A DNA stretch of 13,122 nt, taken from the IMG/VR virus record IMGVR_UViG_2526164662_000025; one strand, 5' to 3'. The notes under the pieces are model-generated. The model had not been told where the DNA came from, did no database searches, and was given only the letters and a program-made list of their open reading frames with translations. Positions 946 through 12,701 of the stretch are shown in pieces. Position 1 is the first letter of the stretch. Every line of letters begins with the position of its first letter. Both the position numbers and the translations under genes were made by a program. Origin of the DNA: a virus (taxonomy: Duplodnaviria > Heunggongvirae > Uroviricota > Caudoviricetes).

Positions 946-3503
946 CGTCCACCTCCGGAGAACAGGCCACCATCACGCATCTGTGTCTGAATTTCATCAC
1001 GGGCACCCTTGCGGGCCATGTCATACACCGCCTTCAGAGCAGCCGGACCTATCTGCCCGTTCGTGCCGTCGTTGTTAATCACCACATGGTTATTCTGCTC
1101 AAACGTCCCGGACGCCTGCGACCGGCTGTCAGCCAGACTGCCCGGTGTACCGACATAACCACCGGTGGCATAGCCGCGCATCAGCCGGTAGAGATTCCCC
1201 ACGCCAATCCGGCTGGTTGCCTCCTTCGTGAAGACAAATTCACCACGGTGAACAATCCCCGCTGGCTCATATTTGCCGCCGGTTCCCGTAAATCCTCCGG
1301 TTGCAAAATGGAATTTCGCCGCAGCGGCCTGAATGGCTGTACCGCCTGACGCGGATGCGCCGCCACCAACAGCCCCGCCAATGGCGCTGCCGATACTCCC
1401 GACAATCCCCACCATTGCCTGCTTAAGCAGAATTTCTGTCATCATGGACAGCACGGAACGGGTGAAGCTGCGCCAGTTCTGCTCACTGCCGGTCAGCATC
1501 GCTGCCATATTCTGTGCAATACCATCAAAGGTCTGCGTGGCTGCACTTTTTACCTGCGACATACTGTCCGTGGCGCTCTCTTCCCACTCACTCCAGCCGG
1601 ACTTCAGGCCTGCCATCCAGCTCCCGCGAAGCTGGTCTTCAGCCGCCCAGGTCTTTTTCTGCTCTGACATGACGTTATTCAGCGCCAGCGGATTATCGCC
1701 ATACTGTTCCTTCAGGCGCTGTTCCGTGGCTTCCCGTTCTGCCTGCCGGTCAGTCAGCCCCCGGCTTTTCGCATCAATGGCGGCCCGTTTTGCCCGTTGC
1801 TGCTGTGCGAATTTATCCGCCTGCTGCGCCAGCGCGTTCAGGCACTCCTGATACGTAACCTTGTCGCCAAGTGCAGCCAGCTGGCGTTTGTACTCCAGCG
1901 TCTCATCTTTATGCGCCAGCAGGGATTTCTCCTGTGCAGACAGCTGGCGACGTTGCGCCGCCTCCTCCAGTACCGCGAACTGACTCTCCGCCTTCCACAA
2001 ATCCCGGCGCTGCTGGCTGATTTTCTCATTTGCTCCGGCATGCTTCTCCAGCGTCCGGAGTTCTGCCTGAAGCGTCAGCAGGGCAGCATGAGCACTGTCT
2101 TCCTGACGATCGCCCGCAGACACCTTCACGCCGGACTGTTTCGGCTTTTTCAGCGTCGCTTCATAATCCTTTTTCGCCGCCGCCATCAGCGTGTTGTAAT
2201 CCGCCTGCAGGATTTTCCCGTCTTTCAGTGCCTTGTTCAGTTCTTCCTGACGGGCGGTATATTTCTCCAGCGGCGTCTGCAGCCGTTCGTAAGCCTTCTG
2301 CGCCTCTTCGGTATATTTCAGCCGTGACGCTTCGGTATCGCTCTGCTGCTGCGCATTTTTGTCCTGTTGAGTCTGCTGCTCAGCCTTCTTTCGGGCGGCT
2401 TCAAGCGCAAGACGGGCCTTTTCACGATCATCCCAGTAACGCGCCCGCGCTTCATCGTTAACAAAATAATCATCCTTGCGCAGATTCCAGATGTCGTCTG
2501 CTTTCTTAAACGCAGCCTCTGCCTTAATCAGCATCTCCTGCGCGGTATCAGGACGACCAATATCCAGCACCGCATCCCACATGGATTTGAATGCCCGTGC
2601 AGTCCTGTCTGCCCAGGTCTCCAGCGTGCCCATGTTCTCTTTCAGGCGGCGGGTCTGCTCATCAAAGCCTTTCGTGGCGATATCGTTCGCCGCCTGTAAG
2701 GCCCCGGCCTCATCACCGGAACGCTGCAGCTGCGCAACATACGCAATCTGCTCTGCCGTCACGTTACGGAACTGGCGCGCCATCGCAATCAGCCCCGACG
2801 TAGGGTCGGTGGTCAGTTTTCCGAAAGCCTCTGCAACCTTGTCCACCTCCACACCGGATGCAGAAGCAAAACGCGCGACACTCTGGTTGATGGCATCAAA
2901 CTGTTCACCACCACGCACACCGGCATTCACCAGGGCTGCCAGTGACTCACTCGCCTGGTTAAACGTCAGCCCTGCGGCCTGTCCGGCTCTGGAGAGCGTC
3001 AACATGCGATCGGCAGTCAGTCCGGACTGATTACCGGAAAGAACCAGGGTTTTATTAAACGCTGAAAGCGTGGAATCTCCCTGGTACCAGGCGTACGCCA
3101 GCGCACCTGTCGCCACCGCCAGCGAGGTGACCCCGACCATCGGCAGGGTGATCGCACCGGCAAGCCCCCTGAGCATGGGGATCATCCCGCCGAAGGAGTC
3201 CTTCACCTGACCGCCCTGTTGCAGCAGGATCAGCCAGGGATTCTGACCACCGGCAAGCTGCGTGGCGATATCCGTAAACTGTGCGGGCAGGGTGCGCATG
3301 GCCGCTTTATACTGTCCGACGGAAATCCCGGCTTTTTGCGCAGCCAGCGCCTGACGGCTCAGGCCCTGTTCAACAGCAGTGGCGGTTTTTCTGGCGTCAG
3401 TATCCAGTCCTGAAAAATGACGCCTTACCCGGCTCATCTGCTCATCGAAACGGACCGCATCCAGACTCAGGTCAATAATAAGATCACCAACCGGCTGGGA
3501 CAT
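942..3503 (-). CDS. H: Tail tape measure protein (lambda gpH-like), 853 aa
   Basis: 853-aa ORF, the length I recall for lambda gpH. It has the N-terminal MSQPVGDLIIDLSLDAVRFDEQ motif, a long charged coiled-coil-like central region (AEQQTQQDKNAQQQSDTEASRLKYTEEAQKAYERL...) and a Gly-rich C-terminal segment. It lies between G-T and M. Confidence 0.95.
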   Translation of the reverse strand: MSQPVGDLIIDLSLDAVRFDEQMSRVRRHFSGLDTDARKTATAVEQGLSRQALAAQKAGISVGQYKAAMRTLPAQFTDIATQLAGGQNPWLILLQQGGQVKDSFGGMIPMLRGLAGAITLPMVGVTSLAVATGALAYAWYQGDSTLSAFNKTLVLSGNQSGLTADRMLTLSRAGQAAGLTFNQASESLAALVNAGVRGGEQFDAINQSVARFASASGVEVDKVAEAFGKLTTDPTSGLIAMARQFRNVTAEQIAYVAQLQRSGDEAGALQAANDIATKGFDEQTRRLKENMGTLETWADRTARAFKSMWDAVLDIGRPDTAQEMLIKAEAAFKKADDIWNLRKDDYFVNDEARARYWDDREKARLALEAARKKAEQQTQQDKNAQQQSDTEASRLKYTEEAQKAYERLQTPLEKYTARQEELNKALKDGKILQADYNTLMAAAKKDYEATLKKPKQSGVKVSAGDRQEDSAHAALLTLQAELRTLEKHAGANEKISQQRRDLWKAESQFAVLEEAAQRRQLSAQEKSLLAHKDETLEYKRQLAALGDKVTYQECLNALAQQADKFAQQQRAKRAAIDAKSRGLTDRQAEREATEQRLKEQYGDNPLALNNVMSEQKKTWAAEDQLRGSWMAGLKSGWSEWEESATDSMSQVKSAATQTFDGIAQNMAAMLTGSEQNWRSFTRSVLSMMTEILLKQAMVGIVGSIGSAIGGAVGGGASASGGTAIQAAAAKFHFATGGFTGTGGKYEPAGIVHRGEFVFTKEATSRIGVGNLYRLMRGYATGGYVGTPGSLADSRSQASGTFEQNNHVVINNDGTNGQIGPAALKAVYDMARKGARDEIQTQMRDGGLFSGGGR

Positions 3504-3948
3504 ATCTCACACCTCCTGGAATCCCCGCTGAAGCCATCATTAATGCGGCATCATCCACCATGACATCCGCCACATCCGCAGACGATAAAATATCGCCCCC
3601 TCCGTCCCCACCGAACCGGACGCCTCCGGCAAGTCCTGCCGCTTTCTGCATCAGCATTTTGTCCTCATCCGGCCTCTCCACCTGCTCTTCCTCATGCCGG
3701 GGGACAAGCAGACTGAAATCAGAGGGATGCATATCCGGATCGCAAAAAAACAGGCTGAGTACAGCGTACATCAGCCCGGAAAAATGCATATCCAGTTGGG
3801 TATCCTGAAAATAATGCGTGCGGTAAAAATGTCGCCAGTCGGCATATTCGGTGGATGTCATCCCGGCAAGCATGGCGCGCCAGTCAGGCCTCCCCATCTC
3901 TCGCGCCAGTCTGAGGGCAAAATTCAGCTCGCCGTCGAAGACTTTCCC
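3484..3948 (-). CDS. T: T segment of the G-T tail assembly chaperone fusion, reached by -1 programmed ribosomal frameshifting from G. The full G-T product spans 3484..4355.
   Basis: The -1 frame relative to G is open from the slippery site to a stop at 3484 and encodes ...VFDGELNFALRLAREMGRPDWRAMLAGMTSTEYADWRHFYRTHYFQDTQLDMHFSGLMYAVLSLFFCDPDMHPSDF... (ORF 3484..3897 in the track is its M-initiated part). This is the arrangement known for lambda G and G-T. Confidence 0.8.
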   Translation of the reverse strand, partial: GKVFDGELNFALRLAREMGRPDWRAMLAGMTSTEYADWRHFYRTHYFQDTQLDMHFSGLMYAVLSLFFCDPDMHPSDFSLLVPRHEEEQVERPDEDKMLMQKAAGLAGGVRFGGDGGGDILSSADVADVMVDDAALMMASAGIPGGVRYVPAGW

Positions 3949-4355
3949 GCAGAAAAATCATCATCAGTAAGCGCGTTATTTTTCGCCACTTCGGTGATAT
4001 CCGTATCCACATGAACAGCCCCGCTCATCCCGGACAGACGCAACACCACGTCTTCCGCCCGGGCAATGGCATCAGCAGGCCAGGTGGTGAGCACCTCCTG
4101 TTCGATCTGCATCACAGCCTCATTCATTGATGGTGACTCCGTTTTCTGTGGATGGTTATGCCACAGGGACATCGCCACCAGAAACGCGCCGGTTCTGACA
4201 AGGTCTTCCACGCTCACCTGCAGGTTACCGCTGGCTTCAGCCTGTTCTGCCCGTCGTTTCAGCAGGGCAAGATGCTCGATACGCTGCAGCGCAGACAGCT
4301 CGGAAAGCGTGACGGACACACCGTTATATTCAAATTGTTCGGTTTTCAGAAACAT
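3924..4355 (-). CDS. G: Tail assembly chaperone G (lambda gpG-like), 143 aa
   Basis: Protein MFLKTEQFEYNGVSVTLSELSALQRIEHLALLKRRAEQ... matches lambda gpG. An AGGAGG-like RBS (aaacGGAGGtaatATG on the minus strand) precedes the start, and the gene sits directly downstream of V. Confidence 0.9.
   Translation of the reverse strand: MFLKTEQFEYNGVSVTLSELSALQRIEHLALLKRRAEQAEASGNLQVSVEDLVRTGAFLVAMSLWHNHPQKTESPSMNEAVMQIEQEVLTTWPADAIARAEDVVLRLSGMSGAVHVDTDITEVAKNNALTDDDFSAGKSSTAS
3942..3948 (-). promoter_or_regulatory. -1 programmed frameshift slippery heptamer G GGA AAG, the G to G-T shift site
   Basis: Plus strand reads CTTTCCC at 3942..3948, so the minus strand reads GCG GGA AAG TCT in the G frame, 9 codons before the G stop. 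This is the same heptamer and position as the known lambda G/G-T frameshift site. Confidence 0.8.
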
Positions 4356-4368
4356 GTATTACCTCCGT

Positions 4369-5121
4369 TTACCCTGCAGCGCCCGCTTCAGTAACGGTGA
4401 CTTCAGCTACCGTGGCAAACTGACCATTACCGGAAATCACGGGGATACTCACTTTTCCAGCCTTAACCCCCGTCACAGTGATCGCCATATCTTTCACAGC
4501 AATGGTTCCCGTTGACGGATCGGCGGAAACCGCTCTGAACGTTTTGTCGGTTGCACTTTCCGGCTCAAAAGAAACCGTCAGGGTTGTTGTTTTCCCTTTT
4601 GCCACCGTACCAGATGTCGGCGTCACCTTAATCGCAGTGACCGGCGTAATTTCGCTGCGTTCTTCCGCCACAGAAGGTTTACCCACGTTGGTCACTTTCA
4701 CCGTACGGGTGATCACTTCCTTCGCCGTTACGGCCTTACCGATACTGCTGACCCAGCCACGGAACACATCCACCGTGCCGTTCGGGAAACGGATTTTATA
4801 GGCCCGCACATCCCCGCTTTCAAACCAGCCTATAAGCCCTTTCTGACCTTCTTCTCCCGGTTTCCAGGCCAGCGTAAAACTGGTATCTCCTGCAGACTTC
4901 TGCCCCTGCCCGGTCGCAGTCCAGTCCGCGTCTTCATCATCCAGGTAGTTATCATCGTAGGGTTCTGCCGTCATCTCGCCCGGCGTCAGATCCTTTACCT
5001 GTGCCAGTCGCTGCCAGTTATCGTCTGACAACGGGTTTGCATAGGCATCACCCTGACCGTTATAAACCCACAGGGTGGTACCGGCACCTTTTACCGGTGC
5101 CAGAGGATTTGGTGTTGGCAT
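4369..5121 (-). CDS. V: Major tail tube protein V (lambda gpV-like), 250 aa
   Basis: Protein [57 protein letters not shown]...[41 protein letters not shown]... closely matches lambda gpV, including the C-terminal Ig-like region ([28 protein letters not shown]). Confidence 0.95.
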
Positions 5122-5128
5122 ATCGTCC

Positions 5129-6467
<1,339 letters not shown>

Positions 6468-9613: not shown

Positions 9614-10216
9614 TCATGGCATGGCCATGAGCATTTTCACGTCCGCATCACCGTCTGCTGACGTCTGTGGCACGCCACCCTGTACCGCTGCCGGTGAATG
9701 GTTCGCCATGATGCGTTCAAACATGGCGGTTGTGGATGCAGAGACCGGTTCTGCCTTACCTGATCCCGCAGCCAGCACAGCCCGGGCGCTCTCCACAGTC
9801 ATTCCCGGGCAGGCAGCCAGCTGTTCAGCCTGCGCCTCAGCCCCTTTTGCCTCATCCAGTGCCATGATCTGATCACGGAGTGAGGGTCCGGCATCCGCCT
9901 GCGGTGAAGCAGCCAGGATCGGGCGGGCTTTTTCCACCGTCATCTCCGGCATCGCCGCCAGCGTTGCCGCCAGTTGTTCACGACCTTTCGCTTCTTCACA
10001 CGCCATAATGCGATCGGCTTCACTCTGCGCGGATGCCACCGGCTGCTGTGGTGCCGCCGCGGCCAGAATCGCCCGGGCCTGTTCAACGCTCATGCCCTGT
10101 TGTCCTGCCAGCATCGTGGCAAGCTGTTCACGTCCTTTCGCTTCCTGGCATGTCAGGATCCCCATCACTCGCTGGTTCTCCTGCGCGGCGGCTTCCGTTG
10201 CAGTTAATTGCGGCAT
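9614..10216 (-). CDS. Nu3: Candidate nested in-frame scaffold protein (Nu3-like), translated from an internal start within C, about 201 aa
   Basis: Internal ATG (Met302 of C, at 10214..10216) is preceded by a strong SD: minus strand reads gtcAGAGGAGGcactATG. In lambda, Nu3 is known to be made from an in-frame internal start within C. Sequence-context evidence only. Confidence 0.5.
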   Translation of the reverse strand: MPQLTATEAAAQENQRVMGILTCQEAKGREQLATMLAGQQGMSVEQARAILAAAAPQQPVASAQSEADRIMACEEAKGREQLAATLAAMPEMTVEKARPILAASPQADAGPSLRDQIMALDEAKGAEAQAEQLAACPGMTVESARAVLAAGSGKAEPVSASTTAMFERIMANHSPAAVQGGVPQTSADGDADVKMLMAMP

Positions 10217-11119
10217 AGTGCCTCCTCTGACATTACTGTTCAGCGCCGTGGCCATCACACTGATGGCATCCGACGCATTGATTAATTCATCCGCCAGCCC
10301 GGCCTCAATGCCGGACTGACCTTCAAAAACGGCGGCCTCTGTTCCCGTGACGGCATCAACAGACAGACCGGTATACATCGCTACTTTTTCAGCAAACATC
10401 CGGCGCGCCGCATCAATGCGCTGTTGCATGTCCTGGCGAACCTCTGCCGGCAACGCTTCAAACTGATTGCCATCCACCTTGTGCGCCCCTGAGTAAATCA
10501 GCGTGATATCAACACCGGCCTGCGCCAGATGACCGGCATAGCTGACATGGCTCATCATCACGCCAATGGAGCCGATACGGGATGTCTGGGTAACCAGCCG
10601 TCGGGAGCAGGCCGACGCCAGCAGCATGGCTGCAGAGCAGGCCGTGTCATTGCACAGTGCCCAGACCGGCTTCTGCTGACGGAGGCGGTAAATCATGTCA
10701 GCGCAGTCAAACGCGCCGGCGGCCTGCCCGCCCGGACTGTCAATGTCCAGCAGTACGCCCCGCACCTGGCTATCCGCCATTGCCTGCTGAAGACAGGCGA
10801 CAATGCCGTCATAGCCTGTCATTCCGGAAAATGGCCGCATACCCCCCAGCCGGTGCACCAGCGTGCCGGTCACCGGCAGTACAGCAATACCGTTCACCAC
10901 CCGGTAAACACGGGCCGGTCGTTTACCTCCGGCCATGTACTCGTCCGTTTCAGCCAGCATTCCGGGAGCATCAAACTGTACCTGCTGTTGTGGTACCGAA
11001 AGACTTGATGCCCCCATCTCGCGCCCGAGCGCGCAAAAGAAAACCCGCGCATAGGCGGGCTCCAGAAGCAGCGGTTCATTGAATGCTGCGGCAATAATGT
11101 GTGAAAGATTACGTCTCAC
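9614..11119 (-). CDS. C: Head maturation protease / scaffold protein C (lambda gpC-like, S49 SppA/ClpP-type peptidase domain plus C-terminal repeat-rich scaffold region), 501 aa
   Basis: N-terminal region (AAFNEPLLLEPAYARVFFCAL, GIAVLPVTGTL, KPVWALCND, SRRLVTQTSRIGSIGVMMSH, ITLIYSGAHKVDGN) matches lambda gpC. It lies between portal and D and overlaps the B stop. The C-terminal third contains tandem repeats. Confidence 0.9.
   Translation of the reverse strand: MRRNLSHIIAAAFNEPLLLEPAYARVFFCALGREMGASSLSVPQQQVQFDAPGMLAETDEYMAGGKRPARVYRVVNGIAVLPVTGTLVHRLGGMRPFSGMTGYDGIVACLQQAMADSQVRGVLLDIDSPGGQAAGAFDCADMIYRLRQQKPVWALCNDTACSAAMLLASACSRRLVTQTSRIGSIGVMMSHVSYAGHLAQAGVDITLIYSGAHKVDGNQFEALPAEVRQDMQQRIDAARRMFAEKVAMYTGLSVDAVTGTEAAVFEGQSGIEAGLADELINASDAISVMATALNSNVRGGTMPQLTATEAAAQENQRVMGILTCQEAKGREQLATMLAGQQGMSVEQARAILAAAAPQQPVASAQSEADRIMACEEAKGREQLAATLAAMPEMTVEKARPILAASPQADAGPSLRDQIMALDEAKGAEAQAEQLAACPGMTVESARAVLAAGSGKAEPVSASTTAMFERIMANHSPAAVQGGVPQTSADGDADVKMLMAMP
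9758..10180 (-). repeat. Three tandem, diverged ~45-aa (~140-150 bp) coding repeats in the C/Nu3 C-terminal region
   Basis: Protein repeats ENQRVMGILTCQEAKGREQLATMLAGQQGMSVEQARAILAAAAPQ / EADRIMACEEAKGREQLAATLAAMPEMTVEKARPILAASPQ / LRDQIMALDEAKGAEAQAEQLAACPGMTVESARAVLAAGSG, followed by a degenerate fourth (FERIMANHSPAAVQ). Confidence 0.65.
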
Positions 11120-12701
11120 GTGGTGTTGTCTCCTCTTCCGGCCTGCGACTCTCCGCTATCTGCTGCTCATACGCCTGCGCTATCCACACCGGACGTGAGA
11201 GTCCGGCTTTTTGTCGCTCAGCAGATTCCCTGACCTGCTGGCGGAAAATGTCCTGATAATCCTCGCCCATCAGCGCCAGCTCTTTCTCATACGTGCTCAG
11301 TCCGGCCTCAATGCGCATCACCGATTCCTGAACCTCCTTGAGCCCGTCAATGGCCATTCTTCCGGCTCCTATCCACTCTGCCCGTGACCAGGCTGATCGC
11401 GCCTGATAAAAATCAAAACGTGCCCGTGGCGGACGAATAATCCCCCGAAGAAGTGCCTCTTCCAGCCAGCAGGAAAACATCTGCGTGGCCAGCCGGGCCG
11501 CAATAAATTTTCGCCGCCCCATAAAATAGCGCCACGACTCATTGGCGGAGGCGCGGGCACTTGAGTAACTGACCTTCGAGTAATCACGGGACAACTGTTC
11601 GTAGGAAACGCCAAGACCGGCGGCGATATACCGCAGCAACGCCTGTTCAAGCGCAGAAAATCCATTGTCTGAATCCTGCGCAGTCTGTAGTTTCAGATCA
11701 TCACCAGGGAAAAGGTGCGGAATTTTGACACCGCCCAGTGTCACGTTATTCGTGTCATACCAGCTGGAGAACTTCTCCAGAATATTAATAAGCGGATTAT
11801 CTTTCTGCTCCTGTGGCGCGCCGGCGATATATTCAAAGGCCTTTTCGGTATCAAGTTCACTTTCAATCGTCGCTGCATACATGGCTTTCACAATGGCCGA
11901 CTGAAGCTGTGTTGCCTGCAGGGAATCCAGCATCTTCAGCCGTTCCATGACGCTGTAAAACTGATTAGCCCCACGGGTCTGCCCGTCCTCCACCGGCTCG
12001 AAAATATGCAGCATGGCCGGACGCCCGGTGGGTAGTTCACGCGGGATCCGTTCCCATCGTCCACTACCAGAGAACGGAAAATCATCCTCACAGATATGGT
12101 ACGCAACGGCACGGCCATATCGATCGACCTCCACCCCGGCCCGCAGAAAACGGTTCCCCATACCGTGTCCTGGCGTGTCCACCCGTTTCGGACTCACGGC
12201 TTTAAAACGCGTACGAAACAGTTGCGTGCTCTCCGTATCCCAGACCGGCTGCACAAAGATTTCGCCGTTAAACGCATGAACGCCCACACCTTCACGGATA
12301 AATTCCGTAAACGTGCGTTTCCCTTCCACGTCGATCTCGCCAGACATCCCTTCGGCGTATTCCGACCAGGCCGCCTCCACCTCATCGACAAAACTTTTTG
12401 CTGCAGTCTCCCGCATCCCCAGCCAGCGCCAGTTCGGACGGTAGCTGATCAGAAACATATGCCCGACAATATGATCCTTATGCAGTGCCACCGCATTGGC
12501 CGCTATCCCGTTATTGCGCACCAGATCATCTGCACGGGCATTGCCCAGACGCAACGCGGGCAACAGGGCCGCATCGGCACTCTGCGCCGGTGGCAACCAC
12601 TCCGCCATTTGCCCGCCAAATCCTGCACCGCCCCCGTTGTAGCTGAGGCTCTCCCGAAGCGGAACACCGTTCACATCAATCAGGACAGGCGTTCGTTTCA
12701 T
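11109..12701 (-). CDS. B: Portal protein B (lambda gpB-like), 530 aa
   Basis: Matches lambda gpB along its length as I recall it (for example GNARADDLVRNNG, FEPVEDGQTRGAN, LQSAIVKAMYAATIESELDT, LLRYIAAGLGVSYEQLSR, WIGAGRMAIDGLKEVQE). Its start overlaps the W stop as ATGA. Confidence 0.95.
   Translation of the reverse strand: MKRTPVLIDVNGVPLRESLSYNGGGAGFGGQMAEWLPPAQSADAALLPALRLGNARADDLVRNNGIAANAVALHKDHIVGHMFLISYRPNWRWLGMRETAAKSFVDEVEAAWSEYAEGMSGEIDVEGKRTFTEFIREGVGVHAFNGEIFVQPVWDTESTQLFRTRFKAVSPKRVDTPGHGMGNRFLRAGVEVDRYGRAVAYHICEDDFPFSGSGRWERIPRELPTGRPAMLHIFEPVEDGQTRGANQFYSVMERLKMLDSLQATQLQSAIVKAMYAATIESELDTEKAFEYIAGAPQEQKDNPLINILEKFSSWYDTNNVTLGGVKIPHLFPGDDLKLQTAQDSDNGFSALEQALLRYIAAGLGVSYEQLSRDYSKVSYSSARASANESWRYFMGRRKFIAARLATQMFSCWLEEALLRGIIRPPRARFDFYQARSAWSRAEWIGAGRMAIDGLKEVQESVMRIEAGLSTYEKELALMGEDYQDIFRQQVRESAERQKAGLSRPVWIAQAYEQQIAESRRPEEETTPRET

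Follow-up and report, generated by a model that had tools for sequence, protein, structure and literature searches.

Phage lambda and coliphage 21 provide the closest described systems to the gene considered here. The lambda C/Nu3 assembly scheme is summarised in PMC3224144 and PMC8508860, which cite Ray and Murialdo (1975), Shaw and Murialdo (1980) and Medina et al. (2010, 2011) for the genetics and biochemistry of these genes; in the passage of PMC8508860 that cites Shaw and Murialdo (1980), lambda genetics has Nu3 as a separate gene overlapping C. For coliphage 21, GenBank record M81255.1 ('Bacteriophage 21 head gene operon') places gene 6, 'head-tail preconnector gp6', inside gene 5, beginning 903 nucleotides (nt) into it, that is, at codon 302. 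The complete phage 21 genome (OL657228.1) carries the same nested coding sequence (CDS) as 'scaffolding protein', with a ribosome-binding site, and the Gifsy-1 record refers in a note to the Swiss-Prot entry VG05_BPP21, 'Head-tail preconnector protein GP5 [Contains: Scaffold protein GP6'. The gene 6 annotation in coliphage 21 dates from around 1992–93. Here we describe the homologous gene in a 13,122-nt stretch of DNA (the window) from IMG/VR record IMGVR_UViG_2526164662_000025, a virus of the Caudoviricetes. It is a 501-codon open reading frame (ORF), called C below after its lambda homologue, in which an N-terminal S49 prohead protease is fused to a C-terminal scaffold region, and it contains an internal Shine-Dalgarno sequence and in-frame ATG from which the scaffold region alone would be made. 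This internal start is already known: it is that of phage 21 gene 6, a Nu3 analogue, and it holds little new biology.

The window gene is a close relative of phage 21 gene 5. Megablast aligns the long ORF with coliphage 21 (M81255.1, OL657228.1) at 98.7% identity over all 1506 nt, and with many E. coli phages and prophages at 95–99% identity. The window protein and phage 21 gp5 are 99% identical over the whole gene and differ in a handful of substitutions (in the alignment, e.g. A39S, T363A, V373A, N378K, HF-to-RI at 469-470, and A484P); the window gene lies in an E. coli prophage, whereas the reference gene comes from a phage 21 isolate. Common to both are the GTG start of the long ORF, the internal ribosome-binding site with an ATG at codon 302, three 'Tri box' repeats, and flanking portal, shp and major capsid genes. 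The protease assignment comes from Pfam PF01343 (Peptidase_S49), which matches residues 146–293 of the long ORF (E = 3.7e-35), and from phrog_53, 'head maturation protease', which matches it end to end (E = 2e-228).

At the internal site the minus strand reads GTC AGA GGA GGC ACT ATG. An earlier note on this DNA, made from the letters alone, had claimed an AGGAGG placed 4 nt upstream of an in-frame ATG at Met302 of C, and the sequence bears this out: AGGAGG at 10226..10221 is separated by the spacer CACT (10220..10217) from the ATG at 10216..10214, which is codon 302 of 501 when counted from the GTG at 11119..11117. Pairing of the site with the 3′ end of 16S ribosomal RNA is predicted at −12.0 kcal/mol. 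This ranks first among the 39 in-frame internal ATG, GTG and TTG codons scored in C and it also leads the 17 gene starts scored on the minus strand of the window, the runners-up being an 853-amino acid (aa) ORF (−11.6) and the decoration gene downstream of C (−11.0). Local RNA structure at the internal start is somewhat weaker than average and comparable to that of real starts, with an unpaired probability of 0.47 against 0.41–0.57 for the five window gene starts used for comparison. The note had gone on to propose a Nu3-like nested scaffold gene, a proposal supported by the phage 21 gene 6 annotation, by conservation across homologues and by homology to Nu3.

Comparison of the junction between the protease and scaffold regions gives independent support. 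Eighty genome loci with C homologues yielded 63 distinct full-length proteins, which were aligned and are 42–99% identical to the window protein in the protease domain. The protease/scaffold linker is highly variable, yet an in-frame ATG is present at the junction in all 63. For the nucleotide analysis we compared 55 distinct 60-nt junction contexts with a control set of 753 other in-frame ATGs from the same genes. A GGAG occurs at −15 to −4 relative to the junction ATG in 48 of the 55 contexts, as against three of the 753 control ATGs, and in 37 of those 48 exactly 5 nt separate the GGAG from the ATG. The motif's GGA is read in frame as glycine in 47 of these 48 contexts; that glycine codon is GGA in 47 of 47, against a background in which GGA makes up 12.5% of the glycine codons in these genes. 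The codon that follows always has G as its first base and encodes Gly (19), Ala (16), Val (10) or Glu (2). Because the GGAG nucleotides stay constant while the encoded amino acids vary, selection would appear to act on the nucleotides, as for a Shine-Dalgarno embedded in a coding sequence; to judge from the aligned junctions, the pattern points to such nucleotide-level selection and is unlike that of a peptide motif. The junction ATG also has the best internal in-frame Shine-Dalgarno pairing in most homologues, and likewise at Met311 in phi80, Met302 in Gifsy-1 and Met295 in the distant phage Chi; the Felix-like phage Sf15 shows weak pairing at the junction. GGAG-N5-ATG offers a simple rule for placing the scaffold start in lambda-like S49 protease-scaffold genes, out to phage Chi.

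Lambda agrees with the window in the kind of arrangement and disagrees in the annotated position of the start. The lambda C and window proteins share 58% identity, and both carry an S49 domain at the same operon position. BLASTP aligns the nested protein with lambda C residues 309–439 (E = 3e-18), a match that covers the homologous scaffold core module. The differences lie in the scaffold region: lambda has one module of ∼42 aa where the window has three, a 36-aa insertion after the start, a different C-terminal tail, and a product from Met309 of 131 aa as against 200 aa for the window's nested product. The GenBank/RefSeq record of lambda (NC_001416) gives nu3 as 5132..5737, 201 aa, starting at C Met239; the HK630 and phage 434 records copy this start, the latter (OL657226.1) with a note that opens 'real Nu3 start', and one lambda imm21 record places it at 5023. 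Lambda Met239 aligns with Ile231 (ATT) of the window protein, and its column holds Met in 8 of the 63 homologues and a start-capable codon in 10; the Val207 column is start-capable in 16. Neither position has a good Shine-Dalgarno in lambda. The alignment partner of the window's Met302 is instead lambda C Met309 (nt 5342). Immediately before it stands CTC TCA GGA GGG CGA, giving an identical AGGAGG-N4-ATG, and its Shine-Dalgarno is far better than any other internal one in lambda. The precedent that the earlier note drew from lambda Nu3 thus stands in kind, through Met309, and fails at the database nu3 start.

Protein families and product sizes bear on the same question. The nested protein matches phrog_8399, 'head scaffolding protein' (E = 1.5e-35), and the computed lambda product from Met309 (131 aa, 13,394 Da) equals in length the 131 positions of that family; the 201-position phrog_8940 reflects the older lambda annotation. 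Purified lambda Nu3 is presumably a protein of ∼13.4 kDa that starts at C Met309, in agreement with this computed mass and with the length of phrog_8399. The earlier note had put the nested product at about 201 aa; translation gives 200 aa, and the nearness of this figure to the 201 aa of the lambda annotation is a coincidence of length. A more modest reading of these comparisons is that the reference lambda nu3 coordinates (5132) may be wrong, with 5342 as the probable conserved start. In the full texts searched, passages on the N-terminus of lambda Nu3 or phage 21 gp6 were citations or general statements only.

Several observations weigh against a functional internal start. The pattern AGGAGGN{3,9}ATG occurs twice in the window where 0.89 occurrences are expected, and at least two arose in 42 of 200 shuffled sequences; besides the internal site, it marks the start of the 853-aa ORF, taken here as the tape-measure gene. 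By itself such a count is no proof, and it is context that lifts the internal site above chance. RNA accessibility of the internal start falls in the top 14% by folding energy and the top 24% by unpaired probability, a weak and mildly favourable signal that was given no weight in the verdict. A 4-nt spacing between AGGAGG and ATG is short, near the lower functional limit in E. coli. Seven of the 55 homologue junction contexts lack the GGAG, and the ribosome-binding site that M81255.1 gives for gene 6, 7–11 nt upstream, is marked 'putative'. The database start of lambda nu3 lies elsewhere, in a column where the window has Ile231. Finally, our literature search found no initiation profiling, N-terminal sequencing or proteomics for phage 21 or for this prophage.

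The junction could be explained without an internal start if only the fusion were translated, its scaffold part being released by autoproteolysis or acting through it, and the residues G-[GAV]-x-M serving as a protein linker or cleavage motif. The motif does lie at the domain boundary, in a variable linker, and phage P2 offers a protease-scaffold fusion acting as a single gene product, in the account given in the relevant part of PMC8508860. The same text, where it cites Shaw and Murialdo (1980), treats Nu3 as a separate gene overlapping C. A peptide motif would also leave the invariant GGA (47/47 against the 12.5% background) to be accounted for, along with a next codon that has an invariant first G and may encode Gly, Ala, Val or Glu, and with the fixed distance to the ATG (5 nt after the GGAG in 37 of 48 contexts). 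We regard fusion-only translation as very improbable. Slightly less probable again is that the internal Shine-Dalgarno-like sequence acts as an elongation pause, or as a signal for co-translational folding at the domain boundary of C, and not as a start. The motif falls exactly at the boundary of the scaffold region with the S49 domain, the end of which is near residue 293. Pausing has no need of an ATG 4–8 nt downstream, yet one stands in frame in 63 of 63 homologues, and pausing at Shine-Dalgarno-like sequences is itself disputed as a ribosome-profiling artefact.

The least probable account, to which we attach hardly any weight, is that Shine-Dalgarno and ATG coincide by chance or that the true scaffold start lies elsewhere in the frame, for example at the equivalent of lambda Met239. 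The chance-level motif count in the window speaks for coincidence, and conservation of the Met302 site in all homologues speaks against it. A start elsewhere draws on the databases, which put lambda nu3 at 5132 (most records) or 5023 (one). It has to contend with an ATT (Ile) in the window at the Met239 column, with start-capable codons in only 10 of 63 homologues there and 16 of 63 in the Val207 column, and with the poor Shine-Dalgarno of both positions in lambda. Nucleotide-level conservation together with the invariant ATG argues against all three of these explanations.

We consider it very likely that one reading frame gives two products with a shared C-terminus, the shorter being a scaffold made from the internal start, and that the two act together in the procapsid. 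We read the window as the late operon for head and tail of an E. coli prophage, lambdoid and of the phage 21 type. Translation from the GTG that overlaps the portal stop would give the 501-aa protease-scaffold fusion (the gpC/gp5 equivalent), and the internal AGGAGG would recruit ribosomes independently to give, from its own ATG, the 200-aa scaffold alone (the Nu3/gp6 equivalent). Both initiation at the internal site and the relative amounts of the long and short products are read here from the sequence: an ATG with the window's strongest Shine-Dalgarno, set against a GTG with a weaker site, leads us to expect scaffold in large excess over protease. A few protease molecules would then co-assemble with scaffold inside the procapsid, because both products share the scaffold region, and the protease would later degrade the scaffold there. 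For this assembly role, and for removal of the scaffold by the protease, lambda C/Nu3 is the model.

The arrangement proposed here, a long protease-scaffold fusion accompanied by an abundant short scaffold with the same C-terminus, has counterparts in phage Mu (I/Z) and in herpesviruses (UL26/UL26.5), where the shared C-terminus targets the protease into the procapsid. The Mu and herpesvirus proteases differ from the window's in being of unrelated fold and sequence, and the herpesvirus short product differs in having an internal promoter and a transcript of its own in place of an internal ribosome-binding site. Phage P2 gpO is a single polypeptide trimmed by autoproteolysis, and we know of no internal start described for it.

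The nested ORF has its frame and its C-terminus in common with the long ORF, and its product is built from three modules followed by a tail (Table 1). The modules were located with a profile built from the three window repeats and the lambda copy, and M81255.1 annotates them as the repeat regions Tri1 box, Tri box and Tri3 box, labelled 'function unknown'. They make up ∼65% of the nested product, less than the 'almost entirely' of the earlier note, and the 46-aa non-repeat tail follows them. By analogy with other scaffold proteins, this tail may bind the capsid. The repeats are detectable at the protein level only; Tandem Repeats Finder reported nothing in the DNA of the repeat region. On the plus strand, TTGCAGTTAATTGC at window 10198..10211 lies directly over the initial codons of the nested gene. 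At the equivalent site the phage 21 record annotates CII binding by pattern match; the pattern, TTGYN6TTGY, has two matches in the window against 2.12 expected, so that the site was rejected as a functional feature, and the CII-type pattern over the nested start is probably due to chance.

Table 1. Features of the protease-scaffold gene and its neighbours in the window (positions counted from the first letter of the window).
Feature	Position	Strand	Remarks
Internal Shine-Dalgarno AGGAGG	10221..10226	minus	within codons Arg298-Gly299-Gly300 of C
Nested in-frame ATG (Met302 of C)	10214..10216	minus	equivalent of the phage 21 gene 6 start
Nested scaffold ORF, 200 aa + stop	9614..10216	minus	603 nt; 20.5 kDa, pI 4.65
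Module 1, 'Tri1 box'	10043..10174	minus	C 316-359, nested 15-58; profile E = 1e-25; in M81255.1
Module 2, 'Tri box'	9899..10024	minus	C 366-407, nested 65-106; profile E = 2e-26; in M81255.1
Module 3, 'Tri3 box'	9755..9883	minus	C 413-455, nested 112-154; profile E = 6e-25; in M81255.1
Non-repeat tail, 46 aa	9617..9754	minus	common to both products; predicted low-confidence helix, then disorder
Long ORF, 501 codons, GTG start	9614..11119	minus	homologue of lambda C / phage 21 gene 5
Shine-Dalgarno-like GAGGAGA before the long-ORF GTG	11129..11135	minus	pairing −9.1 kcal/mol
Portal-like ORF, 530 aa	11109..12701	minus	matches phage 21 gene 4
Head decoration ORF, 115 aa	9230..9577	minus	matches phage 21 shp
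Major capsid ORF, 342 aa	8144..9172	minus	matches phage 21 gene 7

Module number varies among relatives of the window gene. A single ∼42-aa module is present in lambda and in 54 of 64 homologues, two are present in one homologue, and three in six phage 21-like homologues, the window copy included. Variants with two or four copies occur in the protein database, four being found in one variant. Besides the window and phage 21, three modules also occur in Trabulsiella and Providencia. Variation of this kind among close relatives suggests gain and loss by recombination between the repeats. That copy number is a tunable setting of the number of scaffold binding sites for capsid or portal protein, beyond neutral slippage, is possible but rather doubtful.

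In an AlphaFold2 model of the nested protein, built on an alignment of 20 sequences, the modules are each predicted to form a small helical unit (block-mean predicted local distance difference test (pLDDT) 74–84, with about 81–84 for module 1) and the linkers between them to be disordered; the model's predicted template modelling score (pTM) of 0.28 makes the overall arrangement unreliable. Predicted helical modules joined by disordered linkers fit a scaffold protein without proving one. No PDB chain matched the nested protein by sequence, and a Foldseek search of the PDB with the AlphaFold2 model gave nothing below E = 3.6. A Pfam helix-hairpin-helix match in module 3 was sub-threshold (E = 0.018, 15 bits against a 24-bit cut-off) and was not accepted. 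In the protein database, the nested protein matched for the most part fragments at contig edges that bear the label 'S49 family peptidase, partial'; this search served for alignment building and for repeat-number variants only.

Around the gene, the minus strand carries in order the 530-aa ORF, C, the 115-aa ORF and the 342-aa ORF, an order that corresponds to phage 21 genes 4, 5/6, shp and 7. The site equivalent to the GAGGAGA before the long-ORF GTG is marked as a putative ribosome-binding site in both M81255.1 and OL657228.1. The long ORF begins, with its GTG, inside the portal ORF, and the two have 11 nt in common (11109..11119, minus strand); the GTG and the overlap suggest translational coupling and low expression relative to the nested ATG. 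Farther along the same strand, GGGAAAG occurs at 3942..3948, near the 3′ end of a 143-aa ORF (3924..4355) and just upstream of a 137-aa ORF (3484..3897). We take this heptamer to be identical to the slippery sequence at which the tail assembly chaperone genes G/G-T of lambda undergo a −1 frameshift. Its bare pattern is at chance level, with one match in the window against 2.0 expected.

The practical value of these results lies in annotation: the rule for placing scaffold starts, the conflicting lambda nu3 coordinates and the variable module copy number. A match to the gene was found in 2032 of 5426 complete E. coli genomes, at a median of two places per genome and up to seven. Among the 12 matches listed, the NCBI label is 'S49 family peptidase' only and a nested scaffold CDS is absent; since this is the sole label, an essential head-assembly gene is missing from those annotations. 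On a more modest reading, some 2000 complete E. coli genomes may lack the nested scaffold gene in their automated annotation. Many lambda-identical C genes also turned up in assemblies from unrelated organisms, among them Neobacillus, Kitasatospora, Akkermansia, Leeuwenhoekiella and Enterococcus, on contigs that are short and of low coverage; they look like lambda DNA contamination, not real prophages.

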